A model generated the notes under the pieces. The model saw nothing but the letters and a program-made list of their open reading frames with translations, was not told the origin of the DNA and did not search any database. Both the position numbers and the translations under genes were made by a program. From Dehalococcoidia bacterium (GTDB lineage Bacteria > Chloroflexota > Dehalococcoidia > E44-bin15), in NCBI GenBank assembly GCA_035528575.1, contig DATKYK010000024.1, positions 66,420 through 130,419 on the forward strand: 64,000 bases of DNA, given 5' to 3'. Below, one piece after another: positions 13,533 through 31,662 of the stretch. Each line of letters begins with the position of its first letter. The first letter of the stretch is position 1.

Positions 13533-15008
13533 TTATTTTACCCATCGCTTAGACCGCTTCAGAGCCCTCAGCCAGCCCCGGTAAAGAGCCTTCCGCCTTT
13601 CCCGTTCCATTGAAGGCGTGAAGAGCTGACCAGCGGTCCAGAGCGAGGCTACCTCGTCACGATCTCTCCAAAACCCCACCGCCAGACCAGCAAGATACGC
13701 TGCGCCCAGTGCTGTAGTCTCCACTGTCAGTGGACGCAATAGCTTCACACCAAGCATATCGGCCTGGAACTGGGCCAGGAAATCGTTTGCGGCTGCTCCA
13801 CCATCCACGCGAATCTCGGTTGGTCTCAGCCTTGAGTCAGATGTCATTGCCTTTACCACGTCGCACACCTGGTAAGCTATAGACTCCAGTGCCGCTCTCA
13901 CCAAGTGACACTTGCGAGTGCCTCTGGTCAAACCTATGATAGTTCCTCTGGCGTACATATCCCAGTGAGGTGCACCCAAGCCTACGAAGGCAGGGACGAA
14001 ATAGACCCCACCTGTGTCCTCAACTTCATCTGCCAACCGCTCCGATTCCGCCGCATCGACGATCAGCCCCAGTTCATCCCTCAGCCACTTAATAACGGCT
14101 CCGGCAATAAAAATGCTGCCCTCTAGAGCATACTCCACATTGTCTTCTATTCCCCACGCTATGGTGGTTATCAAGCCGTGTTTGGAATGTGCTGGATCCT
14201 TTCCAGTGTTCATCAGCACGAAGGCACCGGTACCCAGGGTGACCTTGACCATACCAGGTTCAAAACAGGCCTGGCCGAAAAGCGCCGCTTGCTGGTCACC
14301 AGCTACGCCAGCCACCGGAATATCGCCGCGGGTATAGCCAAATACACCACTGGAAGGTTGAACCCTCGGCAGCATGGTTCGAGGGACCCCGAATAGTTGG
14401 AGTAGGTCATCGTCCCAATCAAGGGTATGGATGTTGAAGAGCATTGTCCGCGACGCGTTTGAAATATCGGTGGCGTGAACCGACCCGCCGCTAAGCTTCC
14501 ATATTAGCCAGGTATCAACAGTTGCAAATAGCGCTTTCCCCTGTTCAGCGAGTTTACGCACGCCCTGAACATTATTCAACATCCACTCCAGCTTGGTTCC
14601 GGAGAAGTACGCGTCTACTACCAGGCCTGTCTTGGCACGGATCATCTCAGCCAGCGATTGACCTCTCAGCTCGTCGCACCTGGGCGCGGTGCGGCGGCAC
14701 TGCCATACAATAGCGCGCCCTATAGCTTCGCCTGTCTCCCTGTTTATCAGCAGGGTGGTCTCGCGCTGGTTGGCAATCCCGATAGCTGCGATGTGTGCAT
14801 CGCTAGCACCGGCGCTTCCCTTTGCCTCCTCTATTGCCTGAAGGGTTCTCTGCCATATTTCCATGGGGTCCTGCTCTACCCAACCCGGCTGTGGATAGTA
14901 CTGTTTAACCTCCGCATATCCACGCCCCTTTACGCTGCCATCCCGACCGATTAAGAGGGCAGTTGTGCCGGTGGTTCCCTGGTCTATCGAAAGGATATAC
15001 TGCTTCAT
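13533..15008 (-). CDS. glpK: Glycerol kinase (FGGY family).
   Basis: It has DQGTTG and IVWQCRRTA motifs. The start was chosen at MKQY, which has a GGGAGGA Shine-Dalgarno site. The ORF extends upstream to 15053. Confidence 0.85.
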   Translation of the reverse strand: MKQYILSIDQGTTGTTALLIGRDGSVKGRGYAEVKQYYPQPGWVEQDPMEIWQRTLQAIEEAKGSAGASDAHIAAIGIANQRETTLLINRETGEAIGRAIVWQCRRTAPRCDELRGQSLAEMIRAKTGLVVDAYFSGTKLEWMLNNVQGVRKLAEQGKALFATVDTWLIWKLSGGSVHATDISNASRTMLFNIHTLDWDDDLLQLFGVPRTMLPRVQPSSGVFGYTRGDIPVAGVAGDQQAALFGQACFEPGMVKVTLGTGAFVLMNTGKDPAHSKHGLITTIAWGIEDNVEYALEGSIFIAGAVIKWLRDELGLIVDAAESERLADEVEDTGGVYFVPAFVGLGAPHWDMYARGTIIGLTRGTRKCHLVRAALESIAYQVCDVVKAMTSDSRLRPTEIRVDGGAAANDFLAQFQADMLGVKLLRPLTVETTALGAAYLAGLAVGFWRDRDEVASLWTAGQLFTPSMERERRKALYRGWLRALKRSKRWVK

Positions 15009-15143
15009 CGCTCTATTGGTATCCTCCCGGGCCTTCTTTATGAGTATTTCCATGACTTAGGAAGTATTTACCTGAGCCGGTAATGTAGCATATTATATGA
15101 GCTTATATATCAGTCTGCTGACCATTCAGGGTTTTGGGCCAGT

Positions 15144-16001
15144 TCAAATTCGAGTATCTAGCCACGCTCCCATGTCGGCCAGCACCTGCTTGTGCCCCGG
15201 CTCGTTGAAAATCTCGTGGTAGAAACCCTCATAGAGCTTAAGTGTCTTGTCCTTCGAGCTAACCCGCTCGTACAACAGTTGGCTACCATCAGGATCACAC
15301 AGGCGATCAGCGGTCCCATGCATAATCAATATGGGTATGTTAATCTGCGACATCTCAGACGGTAGCTCTTGTAACGTATTAAGCATCTCTGCGCCAAAGC
15401 GGCATGTGATCTTACCCCGGTAGACCAGCGGGTCATTTATGTATGCATCCACGACAGCCCTATCCTGGCTAATGGCAGAGGCGTCAAGAACCATCACACC
15501 CACCTTTGGAGTTAAAATGGACATTAATCGAGCCAGTGGAATCAGCGCAGATGACAGGCTTTGGCCAGGCTTAACACCCACTCCAGAAAGGATGAGCCCG
15601 GCCAGATCCTGTTGATGAGTGCCCGTAGCCGTATAGGCAGTGGCTACCGTAGCTCCCATGCTGTGGCCAACAAGGAAAATCTTCGTGTCAGCATATTCAT
15701 TTTTTACTATTCGGATAAATGTTTCGAGGTCATCCAGATAGTCTGAGAACCGCTCAACGTAGCCCCGCCTGCCCTCTGACATGCCATGACCTCGATGGTC
15801 GTGGGCATAGATAGCATAGCCCTTTGGTACGAGGTGATCGACCAGGTTTGTATATCGCCCGCTGTGCTCGGCCCAGCCGTGCACCACCAGCAAGATCGAC
15901 TTCGCTTCCGTCTCCGGCAACCAGCACCGATAGTAAAGGGTAAGTCCTCTGCACCCTGAGAACCTACCTTCTGTATGCTCCATACCTATGGCCTCTATCA
16001 C
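15144..16001 (-). CDS. Alpha/beta hydrolase, resembling a lysophospholipase or monoacylglycerol lipase.
   Basis: It has the GHSMG nucleophile elbow and an HGWAEHSGRY motif. Confidence 0.8.
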   Translation of the reverse strand: MIEAIGMEHTEGRFSGCRGLTLYYRCWLPETEAKSILLVVHGWAEHSGRYTNLVDHLVPKGYAIYAHDHRGHGMSEGRRGYVERFSDYLDDLETFIRIVKNEYADTKIFLVGHSMGATVATAYTATGTHQQDLAGLILSGVGVKPGQSLSSALIPLARLMSILTPKVGVMVLDASAISQDRAVVDAYINDPLVYRGKITCRFGAEMLNTLQELPSEMSQINIPILIMHGTADRLCDPDGSQLLYERVSSKDKTLKLYEGFYHEIFNEPGHKQVLADMGAWLDTRI

Positions 16002-16380
16002 GATATAAAGGTTCTGGCGATTTCCCCATGACCGCGCTTCTCCCCCCTGTCGCCGTCCGCCAAACTTTAGCAGCTTCCGCCTTGGTTATCAAGTTAACGT
16101 TACCTGACGGCTACTATCAACATCAGTCGCCATTCTGGAGGTTATATGAATGTGTTAAAGGCTTTGAATATTTAACATTATGTAAACAGTTAGCAACCGA
16201 TATATTTGCATATCACATACGTTCTGAATCGAGACCCGACAGCATTGAAGAAGTTCATAGTAGTGAACAGTGACAATTTCGCTTTCCCTTGTGATAAAAT
16301 AGCGCCTGGACATATGCCTATATTTCACGCTATTTCATCGTGACACGGGAGAGTGTTTGGTTGTATAGGGAGGAATAGTT

Positions 16381-16785
16381 ATGGGAGCGGAGAAGTACAA
16401 GTACTTAAGTCCGGAGTGGGCAGAGGAAGTCTGCAGGCGTGTCAACGAGAAACTTAGCCCAGAGCGGATGAAGCATATCACCTCATCCATGTTGACAGTA
16501 AATACCAGTTGCCCTGATGGAAAGGACCGGGCAGTCTACTACGAGATTGTCGATGGTGTTGTAACCGATGTTTCTATCAGGGAGGGTGAATTGACCCGGG
16601 CTGAGTTTACCATTACCGCAGATTACGAGCTATTTGCCAGGATTTCTCGGGGAGAGCTCAAGGCGAGGGCAGCGCTTATGTCTGGAAAGATGAAACTCAA
16701 AGGACCCCTGGTAAAAGCGCTGCGATTGTCACCGCTTGTTGACCGGCTGAACGAGGTGATAGCCACCATACCCACAGAGTATTGA
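16381..16785 (+). CDS. SCP2 sterol-carrier-like domain protein.
   Basis: The SCP2-like C-terminal segment (MSGKMKLKGPL) is present. A GGGAGG Shine-Dalgarno site precedes the start. Confidence 0.65.
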   Translation: MGAEKYKYLSPEWAEEVCRRVNEKLSPERMKHITSSMLTVNTSCPDGKDRAVYYEIVDGVVTDVSIREGELTRAEFTITADYELFARISRGELKARAALMSGKMKLKGPLVKALRLSPLVDRLNEVIATIPTEY

Positions 16786-16808
16786 AGCAGTAACACGCGG
16801 AGGGAGCA

Positions 16809-18035
16809 ATGCCTAAGAAGACCACACCCAACAACGACCCATATTATATCGACTTCGCCAAGAGGATCAAGGATATCCAGGCGGAGATGGCCAACGAGGG
16901 AATTGATGTCTATTTGGGATCGAGGCTGAGAACCCTATCCTGGACCCTGGGTGCTTTTTGCCCCTGGCGCTCATACGTGGTGATCCCACCGGAGGGCCTG
17001 CCCATAGCCTTAACCTTCGTTATCGATGCCTCCAGGGTAGCCGATGACTCCTGGCTGGATGAGGAGCATGTTATCGGATACGGCCCTATGGGGGGTCAGG
17101 ACCAGATTACCCTGCTGTCCAGCCTGATAGAGCCGCATCTCAGCAGCAATGGCGGAGTGATTGGCATTGAAAGCGGTATGGGCACCTATCTCCCCGAGGG
17201 GCATATCACCCAGTATGAGTATGAATGCTTGAAGGGTGCCCTTCCGGAGGCCCGGTTTCGTAATATCCACGACATCGTAGACCGGCTATCACTGATTAAA
17301 GACGAAGGAACTATCAATCGCTTCAGGGAAGCATCCCGCATCGTTGATACCGGGCATCAGGAGGTTTACAAAGCCATAAAAGACGGCGGCTACAAAGGAA
17401 TGACGGAGACCGAGATTGCCGGACTGGCCGCATATGCAATGAGGAAGTCCGGGAGTGAATGGGAATGGTCTTTCACCGGTGGCAACGAAATTGCCTCCGG
17501 GTACCGTACCGGACTGGCAGCAGGAGCCTGTACCCCCGCATCGAGAAGGAATCTCCAGCCGGGGGAACCACTGACGGTTGACCTGCACGCTATGTTTAAG
17601 CTGGCACTGGGCGACCATGCGCATAACTACCTGCTGGCACCAGTAACCAAGCGCCAGAAATGGCATGCCCGGAACTTCGTTGACCTGGTAAACCTTTGCC
17701 TTGCGACCTACCGCCCGGGCATAAGTCCATCTGCACTCGCCGATGAGATGCTCGATTTCTGCGAGGAACGGGGGTTTGCTGATTACATGGTGCCCGGCTT
17801 CGAGCACGGGATCGGGATGGCAGGAGATGAATGGCGTATCGGCCTCAACGATGGCCCGTTTCCCTATTGGACCAACCCGGACCACAGGTATCAGTCTGGG
17901 GAAATGATTATTTGTGCCATGCAATATGCCTGCCCAGAGGAAAACATTGGGTTCCGTTATGAGAACCCAATCCTCATAACAGCAACCGGCTGCGAGATAA
18001 TGTCGAAGTACCCGCTGGCAGTCGAGGAAATCTAG
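16809..18035 (+). CDS. M24-family metallopeptidase (Xaa-Pro aminopeptidase/creatinase-like).
   Basis: A creatinase-like N-terminal domain is joined to a pita-bread fold. A GGAGGGAG Shine-Dalgarno site precedes the start. Confidence 0.75.
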   Translation: MPKKTTPNNDPYYIDFAKRIKDIQAEMANEGIDVYLGSRLRTLSWTLGAFCPWRSYVVIPPEGLPIALTFVIDASRVADDSWLDEEHVIGYGPMGGQDQITLLSSLIEPHLSSNGGVIGIESGMGTYLPEGHITQYEYECLKGALPEARFRNIHDIVDRLSLIKDEGTINRFREASRIVDTGHQEVYKAIKDGGYKGMTETEIAGLAAYAMRKSGSEWEWSFTGGNEIASGYRTGLAAGACTPASRRNLQPGEPLTVDLHAMFKLALGDHAHNYLLAPVTKRQKWHARNFVDLVNLCLATYRPGISPSALADEMLDFCEERGFADYMVPGFEHGIGMAGDEWRIGLNDGPFPYWTNPDHRYQSGEMIICAMQYACPEENIGFRYENPILITATGCEIMSKYPLAVEEI

Positions 18036-18528
18036 ACCAACATCTAATGTCTATTCCTACCACTTCTGCTGTTCAGATAACGTGGTGCCCTCTCTTTATT
18101 AACAAGAACGCCACCGGTTACGATTTCATATTTCGAATTTCAACCCTAAAAAGAAAGGTTGTATACTAATTACTAATATCTTAACAAGTTCAAATTTCTA
18201 ATTTCCAAATTACACACCACTTTCTCTTCCTTTACCTTAGTGTGCATCTGGCAAATTGAAAGGCAGGGCCTAACACAAGCACTATGGCGATTCCTGCTAT
18301 TCTCATTGCATAACTCCGGCCATCTGTAGTAACATGGATACTCCTTTTATCTTTGCCTGTATATATGGGGGCGGTTATCATCCAGCCTGACGGAACCGAT
18401 ATGGACACTCCCAAGAGTAAACATCTGGATTTGTTACAGGACGCGATTCGTGCTATTCTAGTATAGTAAAGAGCCGCTATCTATCTCCAGTATTACTCCT
18501 TGTTATTCTTAAGAAGAGAGGACAAACG

Positions 18529-19329
18529 GTGATCATCGTTGGAGAGAAGATCAACACCAGCAGGAAGAGCATCGCGGGAGCTGTTAGGAAACGGGACACC
18601 GCATTTATCACCAGGGTGGCCCGGGATCAGGCCAAAGCCGGGGCACATTACATCGATGTCAACGCCGGCACTTTTCTGGATCAAGAGGCTGATTGCCTCT
18701 GCTGGCTGGTCAAGACAGTACAAAGTGAAGTGGACCTGCCCCTGTGCCTGGACAGTCCAAATCCCAAGGCTCTTTCTGAAGCGATCAAATGCCACAGGGG
18801 CGAACCGATGATAAATTCCATCTCACTGGAAGAGGCCCGCTTTCAAAACGTCCTTCCTATAATCACTTCTCAGCCCTGCCACGTGGTTGCCCTCTGTATG
18901 TCAAAAACGTTTATGCCCACCACCGTGGAAGAGAGAGTCCAGGTCGGCGAGGAGCTTATAGGTAAGCTCACCGATGAGGGGATTCCCCTTGAGAGGATTT
19001 ATGTGGACCCGCTGGTGCAGCCGGTTGCTGTGGAGACTCACATGGGCATCGCCACTCTGGGAGCCATCAGCAAAATCATGAACCAATTTCCCGGCGTTAA
19101 TACCGTCTGTGGACTCTCCAATGTCTCTTTCGGCCTTCCCGAACGCCGCCTGATCAACCGCAACTTCCTGGCCCTTTGTATATCCTATGGTCTGTCTGCC
19201 GCCATTTTAGACCCTACCGACAAGCAGCTCATGGCAACCCTGCTGGCAGTTGAGATGCTTCTGGGCCGGGATGAATACTGCGAAAACTTCATTAACGCCT
19301 ACCAAAGTGGTCTTATTAGCGGAGGATAA
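18529..19329 (+). CDS. Pterin-binding methyltransferase (MtrH/MtgA-like methylcorrinoid:tetrahydrofolate methyltransferase).
   Basis: It has a DHPS-like TIM-barrel signature (IIGEKINTSRK ... GLSNVSFGLP). Confidence 0.8.
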   Translation: MIIVGEKINTSRKSIAGAVRKRDTAFITRVARDQAKAGAHYIDVNAGTFLDQEADCLCWLVKTVQSEVDLPLCLDSPNPKALSEAIKCHRGEPMINSISLEEARFQNVLPIITSQPCHVVALCMSKTFMPTTVEERVQVGEELIGKLTDEGIPLERIYVDPLVQPVAVETHMGIATLGAISKIMNQFPGVNTVCGLSNVSFGLPERRLINRNFLALCISYGLSAAILDPTDKQLMATLLAVEMLLGRDEYCENFINAYQSGLISGG

Positions 19330-19366
19330 ATTATACTTAAACGAAACTTATCTAAGGAGGCTGAAA

Positions 19367-20005
19367 ATGGGTGAATACAAGACACTCATGGAATCTATAA
19401 TCAAGGGAGATATGAAGGCTGCTGCGGCGGAGACTCAGAGCTCTCTGGATGCCGGCGACAGTGCTCGGAGCATCCTCGATAACGGGCTAATTACCGCCAT
19501 GGACGAGGTGGGCGAGAGATATAGTAAGGGGCTTATATTCGTCCCCCAGATGCTGCGCTCCGCAAAGACAATGCAGGAGTGCATGAAAGTGCTCCAGCCT
19601 TTCTTTAAGGAAGGTGATGTCATCTCCAAGGGGAAGGTGCTGATCGGGACCGTCAAGGGCGACCTGCATGACATCGGCAAGAACCTGGTTTCCATGATGC
19701 TGGAGGGCGCCGGATTCACCATCACCGACCTGGGTGTAGATGTCTCCCCCGATAGCTTTGTCCAGAAGGCGAAAGAGGTCGAGCCGGACATCGTTGCCAT
19801 GTCGGCATTGCTCTCCACCACCATGCCATCGATGCCTAAGACTATCGATGCACTAAAGAAAGCCGGTATCAGGGCTAAAGTTAAGATTATGATTGGGGGA
19901 GCACCGGTTACTGATAAGTACGCCCATGAGATCAAGGCAGACTCTTACGCATCCGATGCCGGTTCGGCCGTAAGCAAAGCCAAAGACCTGCTGGGCATTT
20001 CTTGA
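19367..20005 (+). CDS. Cognate corrinoid (B12-binding) protein of the methyltransferase system.
   Basis: It has the DxHxxG B12-binding motif (GDLHDIGKN). An AAGGAGG Shine-Dalgarno site lies 7 nt upstream of the ATG. Confidence 0.85.
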   Translation: MGEYKTLMESIIKGDMKAAAAETQSSLDAGDSARSILDNGLITAMDEVGERYSKGLIFVPQMLRSAKTMQECMKVLQPFFKEGDVISKGKVLIGTVKGDLHDIGKNLVSMMLEGAGFTITDLGVDVSPDSFVQKAKEVEPDIVAMSALLSTTMPSMPKTIDALKKAGIRAKVKIMIGGAPVTDKYAHEIKADSYASDAGSAVSKAKDLLGIS

Positions 20006-20046
20006 AGATTTTTGTAATTGTTACCTTCATAAAGGAGTAAAAACCG

Positions 20047-21483
20047 ATGGATGTTCCCACCTTTCAACCACGGCTCAAGGTCTTGAACCGTGAACAGGCG
20101 ATGGCAATCCACGCTGCCGCTCTAGAGATCCTGGAAAAGACCGGATTCAAGATGGAGCACCCCGGCGCACTGGAAATGCTCGCCGATGCCGGCTGCCAGA
20201 TTTCCGCCGATTGGGTTAAGCTGCCCGCTTATATCTTTGAACAGGCCCTGAGTTCAGCCCCCAAACAGATCGACCTGTATGACCAGAAGGGGAACAAAAC
20301 GATGCCACTCGCGGACGGTAATACTTTCTATGGCACCGGTTCAGACGCTACCTTCACTCTGGATTTGGAAACCGGCGAGCGTCGCCGGACGGTCCTGAAA
20401 GATGCTACCAATTTCGCCAGGCTGGTGGACGGGCTGGAGAATATGGCTTTTGCCATGTCCATGGCCAACCCCGAGGATGTCCCAGTCGAGGATATTTACC
20501 TTTATGTCTTTGCCGAGATGGTCAAAAACACCAACAAGCCCATAGTATTCATCGCCGATAGTGGCCGAGACCTCGCCAAGATTTACGACATCGCCTGCCG
20601 GGTGGTGGGTGGTGAAACTAAGCTCCAAGAGAAGCCGTTTTTACTCAATTACTCAGAGGCCATCAGCCCCCTGCGCTTTCCCCAGAACGTTATGGAAAAG
20701 CTCATTTTCTGTGCTAAAAAAAAGATACCTATTTGCCTTCCCTCCGGATCTAATGCCGGAGGCGGAGCCCCGGTCACACTTGCCGGAGCCATGGCTTTAG
20801 GTATAGCGGAAAACCTGGTAGGACTCGTCGTACATCAGCTAGCTGGCAAAGGCTCCCCATTCCTCTTTGGCCCCAACGTCAGCGTTCTGGATATGAAGTC
20901 CACCGTGGTATCATATGGTTGCCCCGAGTGGAGCCTCACACAGGCCGCCCTTGCCGACATGCGCGATGAAATCTATGGGCTGCCCATCTGGGCTTTTGCC
21001 GGGGCTTCGGATGCTAAAATCATGGATGCACAGGCAGGGGCCGAAGCCATGTTTTCTATCATAAGTGCCATGCTTTCTCGAGCCAATCTAATCCACGATG
21101 TTGGTTTCCTAGAATACGGGAGTACCTCCTCGCTGGAGATGATTACCATGGCTGACGAACTTGTTGCCATGAGCCGCTTTTTCACCCGGGGAATTCCTGT
21201 AAGTGAGCAAACCCTTGCCCTAGAGGTAATAGAAAGGGTGACAAGCGGGGGTCCCGGCTCCATCTTCCTCATGGACGATCACACCTTTGAACATTTCATG
21301 CAGGCTCAGTTTCTGCCCAAGCTTCTGGACCGCTCCCGCTATGATTCCTGGGTAGAGGCAGGAGCAATGGACCTGTATAAGCGTTGCAATATCGAGGTCA
21401 AAAGGATCCTCTCAGAACATCAAGTGGAGCCTAAAACCGATGAAGTATTAGGAGGAATCGATCGCATCTTATACGGGCGATGA
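20047..21483 (+). CDS. MttB-superfamily substrate:corrinoid methyltransferase (non-pyrrolysine; glycine-betaine/quaternary-amine type), paralog 1.
   Basis: It is 478 aa with MttB-family architecture and a continuous ORF with no in-frame amber codon. Confidence 0.8.
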   Translation: MDVPTFQPRLKVLNREQAMAIHAAALEILEKTGFKMEHPGALEMLADAGCQISADWVKLPAYIFEQALSSAPKQIDLYDQKGNKTMPLADGNTFYGTGSDATFTLDLETGERRRTVLKDATNFARLVDGLENMAFAMSMANPEDVPVEDIYLYVFAEMVKNTNKPIVFIADSGRDLAKIYDIACRVVGGETKLQEKPFLLNYSEAISPLRFPQNVMEKLIFCAKKKIPICLPSGSNAGGGAPVTLAGAMALGIAENLVGLVVHQLAGKGSPFLFGPNVSVLDMKSTVVSYGCPEWSLTQAALADMRDEIYGLPIWAFAGASDAKIMDAQAGAEAMFSIISAMLSRANLIHDVGFLEYGSTSSLEMITMADELVAMSRFFTRGIPVSEQTLALEVIERVTSGGPGSIFLMDDHTFEHFMQAQFLPKLLDRSRYDSWVEAGAMDLYKRCNIEVKRILSEHQVEPKTDEVLGGIDRILYGR

Positions 21484-22934
21484 TGTGGATAGCAACTATG
21501 GGAACAAGTTTGCCATCATTCCAGCCGCTTACCCTTGAAGATGTGAAGCAGATCGACCGGACGGGACGCCGGATACTGGAACGCGTCGGGATCAGGGTTA
21601 ATGATAATACCTTTCTCAACGTAATGAAGAAGGCAGGGGCCCGGGTCGATTATGACAACCAGAGGGTTCGCTTTGAGCAGGACTGGCTTGATGGGTTCTT
21701 AAGGCAGGCCCCCTCCCGCTTTACCCTGTACTCTCGAGACGGCAGGAACGACCTTCACCTGGGGGAAGGCAACGTCTACTTCGCCAACGGGGGGCGGGTA
21801 TTCCGCATTCTCGATATGGCAACCGGCGGCTACCGTCTCACCATGTTGAGGGATGTAGCAAACACCGCCGCCCTGGTGGATCACCTGGATAATATTCATT
21901 CATATATAATCTCCTGCCAGGCACATGATGTAAAACCGGTAAACTACCACCTGCTCGATTTCTATAACGCTTTCAACCATACCACCAAGCACGTAATGGG
22001 GGGTTGCGATGATTTGCACGGCACCAAGCAGATGTGGAAACTTGCTAGTATCATCGCCGGGGGAGAGACCAAACTCCGCGAGAAGCCCTTCGTTTCTGTG
22101 ATTACCAATACTATAAGTCCCCTCTCCATTGATTCCAACACATTAAGAATTCTCAATTTCTGCACCACCCACGGCATTCCCGCAACCTGTGCGCCAGCAC
22201 CAATGGCTGGTGCTACCTCGCCCGCTACCCTAGCAGGGACCCTTTCCCAAATGCATGCAGAATCGCTCGCCGGTGTGGCCATCACCCAGGTACTCTCTCC
22301 CGGAGCCCATGTTCTCTATGGCGCTGTGCCTATGGCAATGGATTTACGCACCATGGAACTAACCATTGGCTCTGCAGAAATGGGTTTGATGAACGCTGCT
22401 GCGGTCCAACTGGCAAAGCTTTATAACCTGCCCATTTACGCCTCGGGCGGAATCACCGAGGCCAAAAGGCCCGACATCCAGGCTGGCTTTGAGAAGCATT
22501 TTTCCAATTTGACAGTGGCCCTGACAGGAGCAGACTACATTCACCTAGCAGCCGGAATGCTGGATTCGGGTAATTCAATCTCTTATGAACAATATGTAAT
22601 CGATAACGAGATTATCGGCATGATCCGCCGCATACTAGCGGGTATTAAGGTGAACCAAGATACTATGGGCTTCGATGTTATAGAGAAAGTGGGACCCGGC
22701 GGGGACTTCGTAACCGAAGACCACACCATCGATCATATGATGGACGAATTCTTCTATCCTAATCTAAGTGTGCGGTGTAACCTGGATATCTGGGAGGAAA
22801 GGGGCCGACCGGATATGTTGAGCCGGGCCCATGACCTGGTACAAACCATCCTGGAGGAGCACCAGGAAGGGCTTCTGGACCTGGATTTGATCTCAGAGAT
22901 AAAAAAGGCCTTTCCCGGTAGCCGACTTCTATAG
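21480..22934 (+). CDS. MttB-superfamily substrate:corrinoid methyltransferase, paralog 2.
   Basis: It is 484 aa and homologous in layout to the preceding gene. Its start overlaps the upstream stop. Confidence 0.8.
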   Translation: MMWIATMGTSLPSFQPLTLEDVKQIDRTGRRILERVGIRVNDNTFLNVMKKAGARVDYDNQRVRFEQDWLDGFLRQAPSRFTLYSRDGRNDLHLGEGNVYFANGGRVFRILDMATGGYRLTMLRDVANTAALVDHLDNIHSYIISCQAHDVKPVNYHLLDFYNAFNHTTKHVMGGCDDLHGTKQMWKLASIIAGGETKLREKPFVSVITNTISPLSIDSNTLRILNFCTTHGIPATCAPAPMAGATSPATLAGTLSQMHAESLAGVAITQVLSPGAHVLYGAVPMAMDLRTMELTIGSAEMGLMNAAAVQLAKLYNLPIYASGGITEAKRPDIQAGFEKHFSNLTVALTGADYIHLAAGMLDSGNSISYEQYVIDNEIIGMIRRILAGIKVNQDTMGFDVIEKVGPGGDFVTEDHTIDHMMDEFFYPNLSVRCNLDIWEERGRPDMLSRAHDLVQTILEEHQEGLLDLDLISEIKKAFPGSRLL

Positions 22935-22935
22935 C

Positions 22936-23541
22936 ATGAAAATAACGAAGATTTCCCATAAAACCTCAATCATCACACGCATTATTACCTGTGCCGTCTT
23001 CAAGCCAGCTATGGAGCATCTCCAGCTTGATTACAGATACCCCCATCTACGCTCGACCTATTTACCCTCCAATCTTCATCTGAGGCCACAATATCTAAAG
23101 GAACGCCTGAATAAAAAGATCGCTTCCGCCCAAAAAAGGAATGAGAAGATCATATGCCTCTATGGGAATTGTTTCCCTGGTATCGAAGTCTTCTGCCAAC
23201 AGCACGGCGCTATCAAAGTGCCCGGGCATTACTGCTATGAAATGCTTCTCGGCAGTGAGCGATTCCGTCAGCTCATTGAAGAGATCGCAGGCACCTATTT
23301 CCTTGAGAAAGACCTTATCCTTAACTTCGAGGAGTATTGCATTAAACCGCTTGAGCTTCATGATGAGGAGATGCGAAAATGTTGTTTTGAACACTACCAG
23401 AGATTGCTCTATGTTCGGCAGCCCTCGGACCCGGATCTGGCGCCCAGGGCAAGCGAAATAGCTGAATTCCTGTCGCTATTTCTGGAGACTAGCGATGCGG
23501 ATTATTCGTCTCTGGAAAAGAAACTCATCGAGATAATCTAG
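22936..23541 (+). CDS. DUF1638-like protein associated with corrinoid methyltransferase operons.
   Basis: It is translationally coupled to the MttB paralog. The family call rests on operon context. Confidence 0.5.
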   Translation: MKITKISHKTSIITRIITCAVFKPAMEHLQLDYRYPHLRSTYLPSNLHLRPQYLKERLNKKIASAQKRNEKIICLYGNCFPGIEVFCQQHGAIKVPGHYCYEMLLGSERFRQLIEEIAGTYFLEKDLILNFEEYCIKPLELHDEEMRKCCFEHYQRLLYVRQPSDPDLAPRASEIAEFLSLFLETSDADYSSLEKKLIEII

Positions 23542-23607
23542 CGTGTACTTATTAAAGATCGAAGCCTTATGATTGTACTTAAAAAAGATCGCCAACCTAA
23601 GTGAGCA

Positions 23608-25542
23608 GTGAATATGGAAAAGACTCAGAATAAAAAACTGGTTAAGGAAAAGCGACCTGCTATTACACCCGCTCCATCCAGGAAACAAAAAATAGCGTAT
23701 ATCTGGTTAAACGTCTTACCTGATGACCTCTGGCTTAAGGTTCGTCAGGGTGAGACCGTCTGGAATGCATTGCAGGAGGCGGATATAGAGCTAGCTGGAG
23801 AGTGCGGCGGACTGGGAAAATGCGGCAAATGTAAAATTAGAGTCATCTCAGCGATAGGTCCGCCATCCAATGAGGAAGAAGAGCTCCTTGATGATGAAGA
23901 GCTTGCACAAGGAATCCGCCTCGCCTGCCGCACCCAGGTGAACAAGGACTTAGTAATCCACACAGGGGAAGCTGTCTCTAACGCAGAATCTTATCAGATT
24001 CTCAAGTCAGGCCACCGGCCCTTTTTACATCCATTGCCACTTATCACCAAACGTCTGGTTACCTTGCCTCCCGAACTCCAGAATGAGGGGCTTTCAGATT
24101 TGGATATGATCAAAATGGCAATGGGTCCCGAATATGACGACATGGGAGCCTCGCTCCATTGTCTACGCACATTACCGCGGATGTTAGCAGAAACCGATTT
24201 CCACGGAGCAGCAGTGCTTCATGGAAACCACTTGATTGCTTGGCAGAGCTGGGAGGAAGTGGACTGTCACTTTGGGTTGGTCTTCGACCTGGGCACCAGT
24301 ACACTGGTAGGCAAGCTAATCAACTTAGCAGACGGGGTTGAAGCTTCCGTTGTTTCATTGCTCAATAGTCAGATGAAGTATGGCACAAACGTAATAAGTC
24401 GTCTTCATTACATAATAGATCACACATACGGACTGAAAAGGTTTCATAATCTTCTCATCAACGATCTGAATATGATTACAGCACGCCTTTTAAGAACTGC
24501 TGGGCTCGAAAGAGACGACATCTTTATTGCCGTCGCAGCGGGTAACACTACTATGCAGCATTTACTGCTGAACCTGAACCCTTCACGGATTGCCGAGGCA
24601 CCTTTCTCCCCGGTTTTAACCGACGGTCTGGTTTTGAAAGCAGCGGAGGTTGGCCTACAATTACATCCCGAGGCCCTATTCTACGTTATGCCCACGAGAT
24701 CCGGTTACATTGGCGGTGATTTGATCAGTGTCATTCTTGCCTCGGGCGCTTGGGAGCAGGAAGATGAAGTCATACTCGGGCTGGACCTTGGCACCAATGG
24801 AGAAATCTTCCTGGGAAATCGCAATAGACTGATGACGTGCTCAGCTGCTGCTGGTCCCGCCTTAGAGGGTGCCAGAATTTCCCACGGAATGATCGCCAAG
24901 GCCGGGGCGATTGAAGCTGTTAGGCTGGATGAAGGTAATCTTAATTATCAGGTCATTGGCAATATCACTCCCAAAGGCATCTGTGGGAGTGGATTAGTTG
25001 GATTGGTCGCCCTGCTCCTAGATTTAGGCATCATAGATCATGAGGGCCTCATTCGCCGGCACGAGGAAGGAGAAGCCGAGGGCTTGAGTTCAAGAGTAAT
25101 CCATCACTCCGGGGTCAATCATTTTCTAATCGCCTCGGCAGATGAAGGCTACGAACAAAAGCCTATCTACCTCACTCAAAAAGACGTCCGCGAGCTTCAG
25201 CTCGCCAAGGCGGCTATTGCTGCCGGCATAAAAACCTTAATGGATGAAATGAGTATCGAAACTAAGGACATCCAGCGTGTGTACCTGGCAGGTGCCCTTG
25301 GAAATTATGTCGACCCTTACAGCGCGGTGCGCATTGGCCTAATTCCCGGGTTCGATCCCGACTTAATCACATCTCTCGGCAACGCTGCTAGCACGGGGGC
25401 TTCCATGGTACTCTTATCCAAGAATTACTGGCAAATGGCTAACCAGCTTTCGAACTCCATTGAGCATATCGAGCTGTCCACCCGTCTCGACTTCAACCAC
25501 TATTTTATCCAACATATGGATTTTCCTGAAGAGGCAACTTGA
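23608..25542 (+). CDS. RACo-type ATP-dependent reductive activator of corrinoid proteins (N-terminal [2Fe-2S] ferredoxin plus an ASKHA/DUF4445 domain).
   Basis: The N-terminus has GECGGLGKCGKCKIRV ... LACRT. A roughly 500-aa ASKHA-like body follows. Confidence 0.8.
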   Translation: MNMEKTQNKKLVKEKRPAITPAPSRKQKIAYIWLNVLPDDLWLKVRQGETVWNALQEADIELAGECGGLGKCGKCKIRVISAIGPPSNEEEELLDDEELAQGIRLACRTQVNKDLVIHTGEAVSNAESYQILKSGHRPFLHPLPLITKRLVTLPPELQNEGLSDLDMIKMAMGPEYDDMGASLHCLRTLPRMLAETDFHGAAVLHGNHLIAWQSWEEVDCHFGLVFDLGTSTLVGKLINLADGVEASVVSLLNSQMKYGTNVISRLHYIIDHTYGLKRFHNLLINDLNMITARLLRTAGLERDDIFIAVAAGNTTMQHLLLNLNPSRIAEAPFSPVLTDGLVLKAAEVGLQLHPEALFYVMPTRSGYIGGDLISVILASGAWEQEDEVILGLDLGTNGEIFLGNRNRLMTCSAAAGPALEGARISHGMIAKAGAIEAVRLDEGNLNYQVIGNITPKGICGSGLVGLVALLLDLGIIDHEGLIRRHEEGEAEGLSSRVIHHSGVNHFLIASADEGYEQKPIYLTQKDVRELQLAKAAIAAGIKTLMDEMSIETKDIQRVYLAGALGNYVDPYSAVRIGLIPGFDPDLITSLGNAASTGASMVLLSKNYWQMANQLSNSIEHIELSTRLDFNHYFIQHMDFPEEAT

Positions 25543-25601: not shown

Positions 25602-25703
25602 TATGAATTACATTAGTATAGATTACCGCAAGCAGTATTCCAACATGGTAGTTAAAGAGGTCGGAGGCAAGGTGGATCGAAGGTTCACAGTGAATAACAG
25701 CTA
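25602..25703 (+). CDS. Possible 33-aa small ORF.
   Basis: An ATG lies 6 nt after an AGGAAGGAGGG Shine-Dalgarno site. No homology is recognised. Confidence 0.2.
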
Positions 25704-25710
25704 GGAGGAA

Positions 25711-26154
25711 TTGAAGATTCGCCGCGAAGAGCTAGCTGATGTGATGAAGATAGTCAGGGTAAAAGAGGTAATGACCCGCGATTTCCCCACAATTTCTTCC
25801 ATCATGGCACTGAAGGAAGTAACTAACCTGGCTCGCAACACAGGTCATCATGGTTTCCCCATTCTTGACGATGAGGGGCGTCTGTTTGGCGTGGTTACAC
25901 TGGCAGACCTAGAACGTTCAATACAGAGTGGGAATACTGACCGTCCGGTAGGCGAAGTTGCCACTCAAGCACCAATAGTAGCTTACCCGGACCAAACCCT
26001 TTATGAGGTATTACAGGCTAGCGAGAAAGATTACGGGCGTATACCCGTCGTTGATCCCCAGGACCCGGGTCGCTTGCTTGGAGTTTTACGCCGTCATGAT
26101 ATTGTAAGGGCCTACCGTAGCAGGGTAGCACAAAAGCAGACGGATGAGAGATAG
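25711..26154 (+). CDS. CBS-domain pair protein.
   Basis: A CBS tandem signature is present. It has a TTG start with an AGGAGG Shine-Dalgarno site. Confidence 0.7.
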   Translation: MKIRREELADVMKIVRVKEVMTRDFPTISSIMALKEVTNLARNTGHHGFPILDDEGRLFGVVTLADLERSIQSGNTDRPVGEVATQAPIVAYPDQTLYEVLQASEKDYGRIPVVDPQDPGRLLGVLRRHDIVRAYRSRVAQKQTDER

Positions 26155-27850
26155 TTTAACCATCGGAATCGTGGGCGCTGGCGGCGATGGAGTAGTGGTG
26201 CTGGGCAGCCTGCTGCAAAGGCTTGCTGCCTGGCAAGGGTACTTCAGCCAGATGCCCCGCTATTATGGAGCCCAGATCAGGGGTGGAGGCTCAGCGGTAA
26301 AACTAGGTCTCGATGGTAGATGTCTCTCCCTACCCGAAGACAGTCTGGATATCTTGGTATGTTTTAACTGGGAAAAATATCTGGAGTTTGAGCACGAGCT
26401 GGAACTAAAAGGAGAAAGCCTGGTACTTTTCGAAAATAATCCCTCAACCGAATTCAATTTACCTGAGACTTCCTATCAGGTCGATTTTTCCAAGAGAAGT
26501 CACGAGGTAACCGGCTCCACCATAGATAAAAATATCGTGGCGCTCGGCGTATTACTTAGAATACTGGCCCTTGACGAAGACCAGGTGAAGATAGCGATTG
26601 ATGAGGATGAAGAGCTGAAACTATTGAAGCAGAATATACCGGCTCTCGAAGCGGGAGGGCAACTATTTACCGATTTCTCTTTTCCCGAGCTACGATTATC
26701 ACCAGCACGGGATAATTCCACCAAGCTGATTATGCATGGTAATGCCGCCATGGCGCGAGCAGCGATCCGTGCCGGTTGCCGGGTATTCTTTGGCTATCCC
26801 ATCACACCGGCAGCAGAAATTATGAATGAAATGCAGCTGGAGCTCTCCCTTGGAAAGGGTGTTTTTCTTCAGGCGGAGGATGAAATCGCTTCATCCGGGA
26901 TGGCTCTCGGGGCTTCACTAACCGGTGCAAAAGCAATGACCGCCACCAGCGGTCCAGGATTTGACCTCATGACCGAGATGCTGGGCTTAGCCACAGCCGC
27001 TGAGATACCGTTGGTGATTATCGATGTTCAGCGTTGTGGACCGTCCACGGGAATACCCTCCAGGTCCGAGCAATCAGACCTCAACCATGCCATCTACGGT
27101 GGTCATGGTGACGCCCCAAGGGTAGTTATTGCTCCCTACGACATGGAGGGATGTTACCGCTTAGCTATAGAGAGCATCAACATCGCCCAGCAATTTCAGA
27201 CACCGGTTATTCTCCTCTCCGACCAGTATCTAGGACAAACCTTTATTTCCACAAGCGATGAGTTTTTAAGAAAATACTACCCCGCCGAGAGCGCAAAACG
27301 TGCCACAAACACCCTTGATGAATATTATCGCTATAGATTAACCGAGGACTCTATTTCACCCATGGCAGATGTTGGTAGTGAAGGACTGGCATATCAAACC
27401 ACTGGCCTGGCTCACAACGAGAAGGGCGAACCATCTTTCGATTTCGAGACCAATCAAATAATGCACCTAAAAAGGTGGAGCAAGCTCATACCACTCTGCC
27501 ACCGGGATGAGCTGGTAAAGGTTTTAGGAAAAGAAGAATCAAGCAGGGGAGTAATAACCTGGGGCTCCTCCGCCCAGGTGGTTCTGGAAACAGTTAAAGA
27601 CCTGGGACTACAGGACACGATTAAGATATGCATTCCCGAGCTAATTCACCCCCTACCGGAGAGAGTCAAGGGGTTCATAAAATCGACAGAGAAAATGCTG
27701 GTGATAGAGATGAATTACTCTGGGCAACTTCATCGTTACCTCCGCTCTCAACTAGATTTACCCAAGTCAACCGAAATTTACGCCAGAGCCGGCGGTCAAA
27801 CCTTCCGGCGGAAAGAGCTGGCTGGTCCCATAACGGAGTTAACCAGGTGA
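26144..27850 (+). CDS. 2-oxoacid (2-oxoglutarate-type):ferredoxin oxidoreductase, fused gamma-alpha subunit (KorA-like).
   Basis: An N-terminal gamma domain (IGIVGAGGDG) is followed by an alpha domain (GYPITPAAE, TATSGPGF). Confidence 0.85.
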   Translation: MRDSLTIGIVGAGGDGVVVLGSLLQRLAAWQGYFSQMPRYYGAQIRGGGSAVKLGLDGRCLSLPEDSLDILVCFNWEKYLEFEHELELKGESLVLFENNPSTEFNLPETSYQVDFSKRSHEVTGSTIDKNIVALGVLLRILALDEDQVKIAIDEDEELKLLKQNIPALEAGGQLFTDFSFPELRLSPARDNSTKLIMHGNAAMARAAIRAGCRVFFGYPITPAAEIMNEMQLELSLGKGVFLQAEDEIASSGMALGASLTGAKAMTATSGPGFDLMTEMLGLATAAEIPLVIIDVQRCGPSTGIPSRSEQSDLNHAIYGGHGDAPRVVIAPYDMEGCYRLAIESINIAQQFQTPVILLSDQYLGQTFISTSDEFLRKYYPAESAKRATNTLDEYYRYRLTEDSISPMADVGSEGLAYQTTGLAHNEKGEPSFDFETNQIMHLKRWSKLIPLCHRDELVKVLGKEESSRGVITWGSSAQVVLETVKDLGLQDTIKICIPELIHPLPERVKGFIKSTEKMLVIEMNYSGQLHRYLRSQLDLPKSTEIYARAGGQTFRRKELAGPITELTR

Positions 27851-28665
27851 GGAAAACCGCTGACTACAGGACAAAATTGAAGCCCGTCTGGTGCCGGGGC
27901 TGCGGTAATTTCGGCATACTTAGCGCCCTCACCAGAATAGTGCTGCCTGACCTTGGGATACCCAAACATAAAACTCTCATTGTTTCCGGTATCGGTTGTT
28001 CATCAAGGATCCCCGCTTATGTTGACAGTTACGGCATCAATGCTCTCCACGGGCGGGCGGTGCCAATTGCACAGGGAGCAAAACTGGCCAGTCCTGAACT
28101 AACAGTGCTAGCTATAGGCGGGGATGGTGATTTATTCAGTATTGGAGCAGGACATCTTCCCCATGTGGTAAGGAGGAACATCGATATAACCTGTATCATG
28201 GTCAATAACTTTGTGTACGCCCTGACCAAAGGCCAGATCAGCCCTACCACTCCTCATCTGGAAAGGGGTGAAAGTCCGTTTCTATCCTGGCAACTCTATC
28301 CGCCAGTAGACCCAATGCTAGATATGCTAAGCTACAATGTTTCCACGCTGTCAAGCTTTATTGCCCAGGGAATTGCTACCAATGTCCCCCATCTCGCCGG
28401 GCTAATAGGTGAAGGGATTAAACACAAAGGGTTTTCCTTCATCCTCGTGCTGACTCCCTGTGCTACCTTCGATCCTCCGTTTCTATTCAGCCTACTGAAA
28501 GAGAGAGCAAGCTACCTGAGAGAGGGAGAACCGGTGGAGTTGCCAGATTCGTCAAAAGAGAAGCCATGGCTCCACGATCCCGACAACATCAATCTAGCCC
28601 TGAGGCTCGCTGAGAGCCCCTTATTGGAAAAGCCATATTTGGGAGTTTTTTTCCGCGGTAGATAA
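27847..28665 (+). CDS. 2-oxoacid:ferredoxin oxidoreductase beta subunit (KorB-like).
   Basis: It has WCRGCG and GGDGD motifs. The GTG start overlaps the korA stop. Confidence 0.85.
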   Translation: MRKTADYRTKLKPVWCRGCGNFGILSALTRIVLPDLGIPKHKTLIVSGIGCSSRIPAYVDSYGINALHGRAVPIAQGAKLASPELTVLAIGGDGDLFSIGAGHLPHVVRRNIDITCIMVNNFVYALTKGQISPTTPHLERGESPFLSWQLYPPVDPMLDMLSYNVSTLSSFIAQGIATNVPHLAGLIGEGIKHKGFSFILVLTPCATFDPPFLFSLLKERASYLREGEPVELPDSSKEKPWLHDPDNINLALRLAESPLLEKPYLGVFFRGR

Positions 28666-29004
28666 GACCGGGTAAACTAGACCCAAAATCCCGCTTCCTG
28701 TTGTAATTAACCACATCTTTGACTATTCCCCACCATATTAAAAGCTCGACAAGCTTAATCCTCGTCTATCTAGTTTTTTCATCTGGAGAATTTGCGCCAT
28801 AGGAATGCTAAAAAGAATCGCATGGCAAACTTAGCCTAGGGTATGGCTCTAAACTGCCAACTCGTGTGTGATTGGAGCAGCGGATTGATGGACTGATATC
28901 TCGATGACTATACTTTTACTACCCATTTACTACTGCCTGCCCTCATCATTGAGCCTAACATCCCTGCGACTCTTTAAACTTCAACCAATGTCATAGAGAT
29001 TAGT

Positions 29005-29553
29005 TTAAAGAGTAAAAGTATCCCATATCCTCCACCTCCCTATAGCAACGGGAAAGGCCAATAGAGTGATAATAATTAAGAAGACACCTCCCTGCCATTT
29101 TTCGTCAAATAGGATTACTGTACCGATAATAGTGAGACAAATGAGTAAAACTAATACTAGCGAACGGTACCTATGGGACGCTTGACTAACAAAAACCAAT
29201 AGAATTACTGCGAACCACGCTAACCCAATCCAGAATAAAGAATGAAATATAATGCCCTCAACTTCTGAAAAGCCTCCTATCCAACTAATAATGAAAGCTA
29301 ATAAGAATATTTCTAATGATATCAGTGATACTCTTGTTCTGTAGCGCCAATTATTTAACCAATTTGCGAAATGATAACACAGAACAGCCGACATGAGGAT
29401 TATTGCAAATGATAATGCAATCCATGCCAACACTATACTGTAAATATCCAGTTCGCCACGTGCCAGTAACGTAGCTCCTATTCCAAACCAGAGGATGCCA
29501 ACTCCTAGTGGACTAAAGCGTTCTCGTTCCTGTTTCGTTAGTTCATCATCCAT
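29005..29553 (-). CDS. Multi-pass membrane protein (about 5-6 transmembrane helices), hypothetical.
   Basis: It consists of hydrophobic helix segments and lies 94 bp downstream of the nuclease-like gene on the same strand. The region is AT-rich. Confidence 0.55.
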   Translation of the reverse strand: MDDELTKQERERFSPLGVGILWFGIGATLLARGELDIYSIVLAWIALSFAIILMSAVLCYHFANWLNNWRYRTRVSLISLEIFLLAFIISWIGGFSEVEGIIFHSLFWIGLAWFAVILLVFVSQASHRYRSLVLVLLICLTIIGTVILFDEKWQGGVFLIIITLLAFPVAIGRWRIWDTFTL

Positions 29554-29646
29554 TTCATAAACACCAACGCCATAATTTATTAATTCTAATCTTTATAGTT
29601 CGAGCTTATCATAGTAACGGTCAATACTTCGGTTGTTCTAGTGGCG

Positions 29647-31512: not shown

Positions 31513-31662
31513 TGTAATACCCCCATAAAAATGGTGTACTTCAGATACATAGTTACTATTAGACCAAATTTCACCCCAATGGCGCCCTGTAAAACCTCAA
31601 GCTATCCTCAAATGTAACCGACCTGGCATATCGCTGCACCATCTCCAGGCCTTAAACACGAT

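Follow-up and report, generated by a model that had tools for sequence, protein, structure and literature searches.

The 64,000-nucleotide stretch of a Dehalococcoidia bacterium genome that was analysed here (contig DATKYK010000024.1 of GenBank assembly GCA_035528575.1, positions 66,420 to 130,419), hereafter called the window, carries at 18529-25542 a six-gene cassette for corrinoid-dependent methyl transfer. An earlier note on this DNA had described a complete methyltransferase system of the non-pyrrolysine MttB type, comprising two divergent tandem MttB paralogs. The gene content is as described: all six open reading frames (ORFs) are uninterrupted, closely spaced and located on the plus strand, and their assignments to families lie far beyond chance. 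The comparisons presented below point to a widespread and mobile six-gene unit, built around a fixed pair of deeply divergent MttB proteins, conserved in many sediment bacteria, whose predicted pockets match no characterised member of the superfamily. The six genes are listed here with a seventh that follows them in this lineage. MT1 and MT2 designate the first and the second methyltransferase of such systems.

18529..19329, plus strand: MT2, methyl-corrinoid:tetrahydrofolate methyltransferase (MtgA/AcsE/MtrH-like pterin-binding TIM barrel), 266 aa, GTG start
19367..20005, plus strand: corrinoid (B12-binding) protein of 212 aa; cap domain, Rossmann B12 domain, DxHxxG motif
20047..21483, plus strand: MttB-1, non-pyrrolysine MttB-superfamily MT1, 478 aa
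21480..22934, plus strand: MttB-2, second non-pyrrolysine MttB-superfamily MT1, 484 aa (478 aa if the start is at 21498)
22936..23541, plus strand: DUF1638 protein, 201 aa, PF07796
23608..25542, plus strand: RACo/RamA-type ATP-dependent reductive activase of corrinoid proteins, 644 aa, N-terminal [2Fe-2S] ferredoxin domain
25711..26154, plus strand: CBS-pair protein, lineage-specific accessory, 136-147 aa, Pfam CBS 1.3e-24

Gene content of the cassette

The MT2 matches Pfam Pterin_bind (5.9e-23) and passes the cut-off of the NCBIfam model NF005719 (336.3 bits for a cut-off of 259), as expected of an enzyme of the AcsE/MtgA type. In the corrinoid protein, B12-binding_2 (6e-18) and B12-binding (1e-28) are both over the Pfam threshold and the His-on motif reads GDLHDIG, so that the cap, Rossmann domain and DxHxxG motif of a methyltransferase-cognate corrinoid protein (TIGR02370 / MtgC-like) are all present; its best NCBIfam match is NF047996 (MtgC), at 209 bits and under the cut-off of 370. 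Both MttB proteins belong to the MttB superfamily (PF06253 / COG5598), with Pfam MTTB matches of 4e-83 (279.5 bits) for MttB-1 and 9e-112 (374.1 bits) for MttB-2, the gathering score being 25. With TIGR02369, the equivalog model of the pyrrolysine-containing MttB (Pyl-MttB), they reach 372 and 439 bits respectively, both under the cut-off of 525. The DUF1638 protein is recognised by PF07796 (4e-27). In the activase, Fer2, Raco_middle (3e-48) and RACo_C_ter (5e-81), the last being the C-terminal ASKHA ATPase domain, are over their gathering scores, RACo_linker is slightly under its cut-off (23.3 bits for 26.2) and the AcsV-like model NF040756 gives 400 bits, under its cut-off; an ATP-dependent reactivator of corrinoid proteins is predicted from these domains. 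The conclusion that the cassette is a complete set of MT1, corrinoid protein, MT2 and reactivation genes is well supported.

Two gene starts deserve a comment. The longest ORF of the corrinoid gene spans 19250-20005, and the ATG at 19367 is preceded by AAGGAGG; the latter is most likely the true start and gives the 212-aa protein called on related contigs. The start of MttB-2 may be at 21498 instead of 21480, which would yield 478 aa, like most of its orthologues; an exact look-up with the 484-aa form returned no match. The same operon was also found on a 56-kb ENA contig and on further contigs, and MttB-1 is 100% identical to an NCBI protein from a metagenome-assembled genome of Dehalococcoidia.

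No Rfam match was obtained at the gathering thresholds over the whole window, nor at E <= 1 for 17950-18600, and the idea of a riboswitch or leader RNA in the 490-nt gap 5' of the operon was rejected on this null result. Promoter and terminator scans gave counts that were not above those of shuffled sequence. No C1/tetrahydrofolate pathway gene was found in the rest of the window.

Conservation of the cassette across genomes

A scan with one genome per species returned 180 stretches with a relative of MttB-1, and the locus counts refer throughout to the best 80 of these 180 (individual loci carry an L number). In these 80 loci, MttB-1 is 75-94% identical to that of the window. The hosts are Dehalococcoidia and other Chloroflexota, Desulfobacterota and Nitrospirota, the Desulfobacterota including Syntrophobacterales, Desulfobacterales, Desulfomonilaceae and the cultured Desulfoferrobacter suflitae DRH4. 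A tblastn analysis with the window proteins showed that the order MT2, corrinoid protein, MttB-1, MttB-2, DUF1638, RACo is kept in nearly all 80 loci where the contig is long enough. When only the loci with enough room are counted as testable, MttB-2 lies directly 3' of MttB-1 in 73 of 74 (median gap 23 nt), the corrinoid protein is present in 68 of 70, the MT2 precedes the corrinoid gene in 56 of 59, and DUF1638 and RACo are found in 62/67 and 48/51 respectively. The same cassette was recovered by three look-ups begun from MttB-2 homologues.

No further neighbouring gene is conserved around the cassette in the 80 loci, and the six genes can therefore be regarded as a functional unit. Likewise, no transporter or regulator conserved beside the cassette was found in these loci. 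The upstream SCP2, M24/creatinase-like, lipase and FGGY kinase genes were considered as parts of the pathway and rejected, as they accompany the cassette only in its closest relatives (L001, L002 and L005).

The identity of MttB-1 between phyla has a mean of 0.76 and a maximum of 0.91, and within phyla it amounts to 0.77-0.78. This equivalence of between-phylum and within-phylum identity indicates that the cassette has probably spread horizontally, although some bins of metagenome-assembled genomes (MAGs) may be mislabelled. Ratios of nonsynonymous to synonymous substitution (dN/dS) of 0.04-0.30 across all six genes reveal purifying selection, with MttB-1 the most constrained (0.04-0.10) and MttB-2 at 0.05-0.14. 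Given this selection and the invariant pocket columns described below, both MttB enzymes are likely to be catalytically active.

Two divergent MttB paralogs

MttB-1 and MttB-2 are only 33% identical to one another, and each shares 31-34% identity with MtgB of Desulfitobacterium hafniense and with Pyl-MttB of Methanosarcina barkeri. In a representative library of 1.84 billion proteins, the family has 7011 members at E <= 1e-3. The MttB-1 clade forms a single cluster of 50% identity; its representative is 76% identical to MttB-1 and the next neighbour 46%. In a neighbour-joining tree with 25 bootstraps, which is indicative only because its sequences were sampled by similarity to MttB-1, MttB-1 grouped with MtgB, Pyl-MttB or MttB-2 in none of the 25 bootstraps. 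MttB-2 was placed in the opposite half of the tree, across the deepest split, among other uncharacterised paralogs of these genomes; MtgB and Pyl-MttB are only loose neighbours there, some 1.5 substitutions per site away. The divergence of the pair announced in the earlier note is thus confirmed by identity and by tree position alike, and the phylogenetic check that it proposed, made here with MtgB and Pyl-MttB, clusters neither paralog with either enzyme. Judged by these comparisons, MttB-1 and MttB-2 are ancient, non-redundant paralogs that have been inherited together.

The AlphaFold2 (AF2) model of MttB-1, with a mean predicted local distance difference test (pLDDT) of 68.6, matches the structures 2qne, 9yce, 7xcl/7xcm/7xcn and 4yyc with template modelling (TM) scores of 0.68-0.72 and E-values down to 1e-29. 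The modelled fold is that of the MttB superfamily, a TIM barrel with N- and C-terminal extensions. By sequence, no solved structure scores higher than MtgB with either paralog.

Fusions were also considered. Among the 150 nearest family representatives, none joins one MttB to another. Two other fusions were observed in the family: a MetH-like protein of 1136 aa (P0417), in which an N-terminal MTTB domain is followed by homocysteine S-methyltransferase, B12 cap and B12-binding domains, and a protein of 972 aa (P0466) that combines MTTB, B12-binding and Pterin_bind. Their architectures suggest single-chain, quaternary-amine-dependent methionine synthases or tetrahydrofolate methyltransferases.

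Pocket residues

In MtgB, mutagenesis and a ligand-bound structure have defined the glycine betaine site, where Y97 and F356 provide cation-pi contacts and R312 and H348 hold the carboxylate; the R312L variant is inactive, and R312 is conserved in MtgB, MtpB, MtcB, MtyB and MthB, all of which have acidic quaternary-amine substrates (PMC13080624). The active site of Pyl-MttB is surrounded by Gly110-Thr111, Met249, Pyl334 and Tyr364 (PMC9842639). The equivalent positions were read from an alignment of 81 MttB-1 and 71 MttB-2 orthologues with three solved sequences, and are given below in the order MtgB Y97 (MttB G110) / G98 (T111) / MttB M249 / R312 (Y329) / Pyl334 / H348-MttB Y364 / F356.

MtgB: Y / G / L / R / L / H / F
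Pyl-MttB: G / T / M / Y / Pyl / Y / G
MttB-1: S / D / G / W / A / H / G
MttB-2: G / R / A / Y / V,L,I / H / G

The MttB-1 positions are invariant in the 81 orthologues, apart from the Ala of the Pyl334 column, found in 78 of them. The R312 column is occupied by Trp in 81/81 MttB-1 and by Tyr in 67/71 MttB-2 orthologues. The column of MtgB G98 and MttB T111 carries opposite charges in the two paralogs, an invariant Asp in MttB-1 and an Arg present in 71/71 orthologues of MttB-2.

Neither pocket is that of a known enzyme. At the position of Pyl334, MttB-1 has Ala and MttB-2 has Ile (V/L/I in 68/71 orthologues), and neither gene has an internal stop, in agreement with the lack of an in-frame amber codon reported in the earlier note. 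The G110-T111 pair of Pyl-MttB reads S-D in MttB-1 and G-R in MttB-2, and Y364 is replaced by His in both. The four glycine-betaine residues of MtgB (Y97, R312, H348 and F356) are S, W, H and G in MttB-1 and G, Y, L or H (with an adjacent His) and G in MttB-2; only the His is kept in either paralog. The Arg312 that marks the MT1 group acting on acidic quaternary amines, taken here from PMC13080624 and not from our own alignment, is absent from both. Neither MttB is, on the basis of these residues, a probable orthologue of MtgB, MtpB, MtcB, MtyB, MthB or Pyl-MttB.

These features extend beyond the cassette. Among the approximately 140 nearest representatives of MttB-1, the R312 column contains F in 61, W in 49, Y in 15, M in 7 and R in 1, and the signature S-D ... 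W/F ... C/A ... H ... G predominates. This places MttB-1 in an extensive branch of the superfamily that is wholly uncharacterised.

Predicted reactivation genes

In 58 DUF1638 sequences (46-91% identity, with orthologues in L005-L084), Cys19, His48, Cys79, Cys100 and Cys135 are invariant, Cys87 is present in 56/58 and Cys74 in 50/58. The AF2 model is a confident alpha/beta structure (pLDDT 84), and a fold search with it gave no PDB match at E <= 1e-3. In Phaeobacter, DUF1638 has been tied to a RamA-like activase and to B12 reactivation by co-fitness and phylogenetic profile (10.1101/192971), and in Ruegeria it is co-induced on N-osmolytes (PMC12478193). By analogy, DUF1638 is a probable partner of the activase in corrinoid reactivation. 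The conserved Cys and His residues suggest a metal or Fe-S site, and a redox or metal-binding helper of the activase would be a reasonable inference.

In seven Dehalococcoidia loci (L009, L012, L013, L016, L017, L072 and L075), a CBS gene lies within a few nucleotides 3' of RACo, and in L085/L086 the CBS domain is fused to RACo in one 784-aa protein (10062-12416). In view of this adjacency and of the fusion, the CBS protein is probably an accessory of the activase, and the operon unit probably extends in this lineage to the CBS gene at 25711-26154. This protein would probably act with the activase as a sensor of adenine nucleotides. Three further observations were made around these genes. In the window, a 33-codon ORF (25604-25705, plus strand, MNYISIDYRKQYSNMVVKEVGGKVDRRFTVNNS) lies between RACo and the CBS gene, after a strong ribosome-binding site (GGAAGGAGGG). 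In L085/L086, a 52-aa gene is called immediately after the RACo-CBS fusion. Finally, L005 contains two tandem RACo genes (13561-17679), the second of which is only 67% identical to that of the window.

Comparison with characterised systems

The closest known counterpart is the MtgB/MtgC/MtgA system of D. hafniense (PDB 2QNE, 9YCE), which likewise combines an MT1 of the MttB superfamily that lacks pyrrolysine, a corrinoid protein of the MtgC kind and an MT2 that binds a pterin and transfers the methyl group to tetrahydrofolate. The TIM-barrel fold is the same (TM ~0.72 for the MttB-1 model) and MtgB is the best sequence match among the solved structures. The cassette differs by its two MT1 genes instead of one and by the presence of the activase and DUF1638 genes within the operon. 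It differs further by the replacement of Y97, R312 and F356 by S/W/G in MttB-1 and G/Y/G in MttB-2, by a corrinoid protein that scores under the MtgC cut-off and by an MttB identity of 31-34%.

In Eubacterium limosum, the MT1 genes are separately located and separately induced, and are not known to form a fixed tandem pair. This organism (MtpB, MtcB and MtyB with MtqC/MtqA; MthB/MthC/MthA/MthK) nevertheless resembles the cassette in that several MttB-type MT1s feed one corrinoid protein and one tetrahydrofolate methyltransferase (PMC12478193, PMC12155760). Its MT1s, compared here with the cassette by their description, differ in that they conserve R312 and act on acidic substrates (PMC13080624). 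Choline utilisation in E. limosum requires prior phosphorylation (PMC12155760).

The MttB/MttC/RamA system of M. barkeri (PDB 7XCL-7XCN) belongs to the same superfamily, has the same fold and relies on an ATP-dependent activase of the RamA/RACo type; MttB-2 shares with Pyl-MttB the Gly at G110 and the Tyr at Y329. The cassette differs from it by the absence of UAG/pyrrolysine, replaced by Ala in MttB-1 and Ile in MttB-2, by the change of Y364 to His and of T111 to Asp or Arg, and by TIGR02369 scores of 372 and 439 bits for a cut-off of 525. The predicted acceptor of the cassette is tetrahydrofolate and not coenzyme M. In the split methionine synthase, or MtgBCDE, of Phaeobacter, Ruegeria and Sinorhizobium, separate pterin and B12 modules, MttB-family proteins and a pair formed by a RamA-like activase and DUF1638 are also found; the cassette differs from it by the lack of a homocysteine-binding module. 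The S. meliloti MttB homologue 4YYC keeps an MtgB-like Y/R/H signature, which both window paralogs lack. A fixed pairing of two MttBs has no precedent among the characterised systems compared here. In the literature on Desulfoferrobacter, nothing was found on methylated substrates.

Proposed function and alternative explanations

On balance, the cassette is best read as a self-contained and horizontally mobile system of corrinoid-dependent methyl transfer, in which two distinct MT1 activities would share one corrinoid protein. One of the two MttB MT1s would bind a methylated 'onium' donor, most likely from among the quaternary amines or their close cationic relatives, and the Co(I) form of the common corrinoid protein would accept its methyl group. 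The pterin methyltransferase would then move this methyl group from CH3-Co(III) to tetrahydrofolate, while RACo and DUF1638, with the CBS protein in this lineage, would use ATP and low-potential electrons to bring cobalt that has been accidentally oxidised to Co(II) back to Co(I). The two MttBs would act on two co-occurring related substrates, or would remove the methyl groups of one substrate in succession. The observed part of this explanation consists of the genes present, the families to which they belong, the residues of the pockets, and the conservation and linkage of the cassette; the direction of methyl flow, the class of substrate and the division of labour between the MttBs are what we infer.

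Two distinct MT1 activities are favoured because the pockets are invariant yet different, and because L043 (8550-11306) contains an extra set of corrinoid protein, MttB-2 and DUF1638 genes without MttB-1. The fixed unit seen in 73 of 74 loci and in three phyla argues for a functional coupling of the pair rather than for two independently acquired specificities. The two substrates suggested in the earlier note are therefore possible, given the distinct invariant pockets, but the near-constant association gives this idea the form of a coupled pair. Its other proposal, the demethylation of quaternary amines to tetrahydrofolate, stands as regards the type of system and the methyl-to-tetrahydrofolate module (NF005719). 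The betaines that it listed are unsupported, as R312 and the MtgB aromatic residues are absent. A methyl-to-tetrahydrofolate mechanism is well supported by the predicted functions of the genes, and a substrate of the quaternary-amine class is weakly supported. An OpuAC-type substrate-binding protein is encoded in L039, L045 and L055, and an ABC permease in L039, L045, L055 and L056, approximately 2.4-6.2 kb upstream and in two phyla.

Several points weigh against this interpretation. The substrate class comes only from family membership and from these sparse transporter neighbours, present in a few of the 80 loci. The pocket assignments derive from sequence alignment to two crystal structures, and different alignments leave one residue of doubt in the register near MtgB Y97/G98 and H348. 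The AF2 model of MttB-1 has low confidence exactly in the pocket loops and was rejected for inferences at the level of residues. MtpB, MtcB, MtyB and MthB are set apart by the published statement on R312 and not by alignment. A Caldilineaceae MAG (L073, 8408-11425) has two adjacent copies of MttB-1 without MttB-2 or the other components, surrounded by signalling genes only; with L043, this exception means that the coupling of MttB-1 and MttB-2 is not absolute. Conversely, the strict co-inheritance of the pair would fit a heteromer as well as two separate activities.

Indeed, MttB-1 and MttB-2 might form an obligate heteromer with a single substrate, for instance a heterodimer in place of the homodimer of MtgB or MttB, one subunit being perhaps structural or serving to dock the corrinoid protein. 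The family works as a dimer in which the C-terminal loop of the partner forms part of the rim of the active site and holds the corrinoid protein (PMC9842639, PMC13080624). The near-absolute linkage across three phyla, with gaps of tens of nucleotides, would be accounted for in this way. The other MttB clusters of the same genomes carry a single MttB, and even the exceptional L073 has two adjacent MttB genes. However, both paralogs keep their own invariant pocket and a very low dN/dS, which is unexpected for a purely structural subunit, and the L043 set lacking MttB-1 and the absence of MttB-MttB fusions among the nearest representatives also argue against it, and a heteromer is considered plausible but unlikely. 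It is also rather doubtful that a convergent pocket enables either MttB, or both, to demethylate glycine betaine or some other known acidic quaternary amine. MtgB is the top solved structure for both paralogs, MtgC is the top NCBIfam model of the corrinoid protein, an OpuAC-type protein of the glycine-betaine ABC transporter family occurs near a few loci, and such genes of Chloroflexi and Deltaproteobacteria have been labelled mtgB (PMC6081815). The invariant Arg of MttB-2, in the column next to MtgB Y97 / MttB G110, could bind a carboxylate. Against this stand the absence from both proteins of three of the four validated glycine-betaine residues (H348 being kept in MttB-1 and represented by an adjacent His in MttB-2), the inactivity of R312L MtgB, the low identity to MtgB, the MtgC score far under its cut-off and the acidic Asp of MttB-1, which would disfavour a substrate bearing a carboxylate. 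A convergent betaine pocket thus appears disfavoured by the residue data, with the proviso that for MttB-2 the alternative Arg could bind the carboxylate.

A non-acidic methylamine is a more speculative option, and it is improbable that at least one of the pair, most plausibly MttB-1, is a pyrrolysine-independent methyltransferase for such a compound. The basis offered for it is the MttB-1 pocket, composed of invariant Asp, Trp and His and of otherwise small residues. Trimethylamine, choline, tetramethylammonium or a protonated tertiary amine left by a first demethylation may then be candidate substrates of MttB-1. Its Asp would keep the amine cationic and replace the job done by pyrrolysine in methanogens; MttB-2, with its Arg, would take a zwitterionic quaternary amine and MttB-1, with its Asp, the protonated product, in successive demethylations. 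If this were true, the whole S-D ... W/F ... H group, which makes up most of the ~140 nearest 50%-identity representatives, would share a non-acidic chemistry. To our knowledge, the characterised enzymes of the MttB family other than Pyl-MttB accept acidic quaternary amines only. In Methanococcoides, a homologue of MtmB without Pyl deals with tetramethylammonium and choline. The chloromethane dehalogenase CdmB was rejected as a precedent for a non-amine substrate, as it belongs to the UroD and not to the MttB superfamily.

Finally, a methyl shuttle serving biosynthesis and not catabolism, either by supplying methyl-tetrahydrofolate for methionine and S-adenosylmethionine (SAM), as in the roseobacter split methionine synthase MtgBCDE, or by the reverse methylation of an amine, is regarded as highly improbable. 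The pair of DUF1638 and RamA-like activase does accompany the split methionine synthase, MetK and S-adenosylhomocysteine (SAH) hydrolase genes lie upstream of the cassette in D. suflitae, and the fusion protein P0417 joins an MttB domain to homocysteine S-methyltransferase and B12-binding domains. But no homocysteine-binding module (PF02574) is found in the cassette or the window, the SAM-cycle neighbours are limited to a few Desulfobacterota loci and, by our own chemical reasoning, thermodynamics would not favour the passage of a methyl group from CH3-Co(III) to a tertiary amine.

Genomic surroundings

In D. suflitae DRH4 (L044, 18-8124), the region ahead of the cassette contains two Asn-synthase-like genes, MetK, SAH hydrolase and the K+ uptake genes TrkH/TrkA. 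This neighbourhood resembles a context of osmoadaptation and SAM cycle, and was counted as weak support for a quaternary-amine substrate. In seven loci (L021, L030, L033, L050, L057, L077 and L084), other MttB clusters are located less than 10 kb from the cassette; their MttBs are 29-42% identical to MttB-2 and have a Tyr in the R312 column. In four of them (L030, L033, L077 and L084), these clusters adjoin an Asn-synthase-like gene and a gene for a 420-aa SAM-methyltransferase-like protein, with MetK nearby in L077. In L055, where the corrinoid-protein gene is the only one detected, genes of the same two types lie beside it. The extra MttB clusters with Asn-synthase-like genes may constitute an island of osmolyte synthesis and turnover. 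In L021, L022, L050 and L057, a 228-aa protein resembling the reactivation domain of B12-dependent methionine synthase (PF02965, E 1.4e-07) is encoded 2.6-8 kb from the cassette.

Elsewhere in the window are genes for 2-oxoacid:ferredoxin oxidoreductases, acetyl-CoA synthetase, beta-oxidation enzymes, CoA-transferases and methylmalonyl-CoA mutase. Two sets of 2-oxoacid:ferredoxin oxidoreductase are located at 6791-9223 and 26144-28665, one split into alpha, beta and gamma and the other made of a fused gamma-alpha and a beta subunit; in some Dehalococcoidia loci, the cassette is followed by this second set (L005, L009, L074 and L078, and inverted in L053). The region 28000-32000 has a GC content of 0.40-0.43, compared with ~0.50 elsewhere, and may be a small acquired island. 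Its minus-strand ORFs 29005-29553 and 29647-30249 have no Pfam match, and a DUF5655 / NucS-like protein is encoded at 30628-31512. A tRNA is found at 38206-38277 (minus strand). An acyl-CoA cluster at 39481-55882 comprises three acyl-CoA dehydrogenases, two thiolases, two family-III CoA-transferases, a ChsH2-like OB-fold protein and methylmalonyl-CoA mutase, and is broken by a minus-strand gene for a PRiA4_ORF3 / ST7-like protein (48913-50514).

Significance

The mechanism class of the cassette is ordinary; the questions that it raises concern its substrates, the reason for the near-obligate pairing of its MttBs and the role of DUF1638. Anoxic sediments and soils are very rich in MttB homologues without pyrrolysine, and metagenome studies routinely label such genes 'mtgB' or 'mttB' (e.g. 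PMC6081815, PMC12484752). Relatives of MttB-1 occur in at least 180 species-level genomes and among thousands of related metagenomic proteins, and for these genes such labels are not justified by the residues described above. Since this widespread cassette fits neither label at the residue level, inferences on the carbon and methane cycles that were drawn from mtgB or mttB annotations may be wrong. The presence of the cassette in a cultured sulfate reducer, D. suflitae DRH4, provides a practical organism for experiments. Work on this system could explain the fixed pairing of MttBs and give a first handle on the role of DUF1638, and it could reveal methylotrophic substrates whose use competes with methylotrophic methanogenesis.

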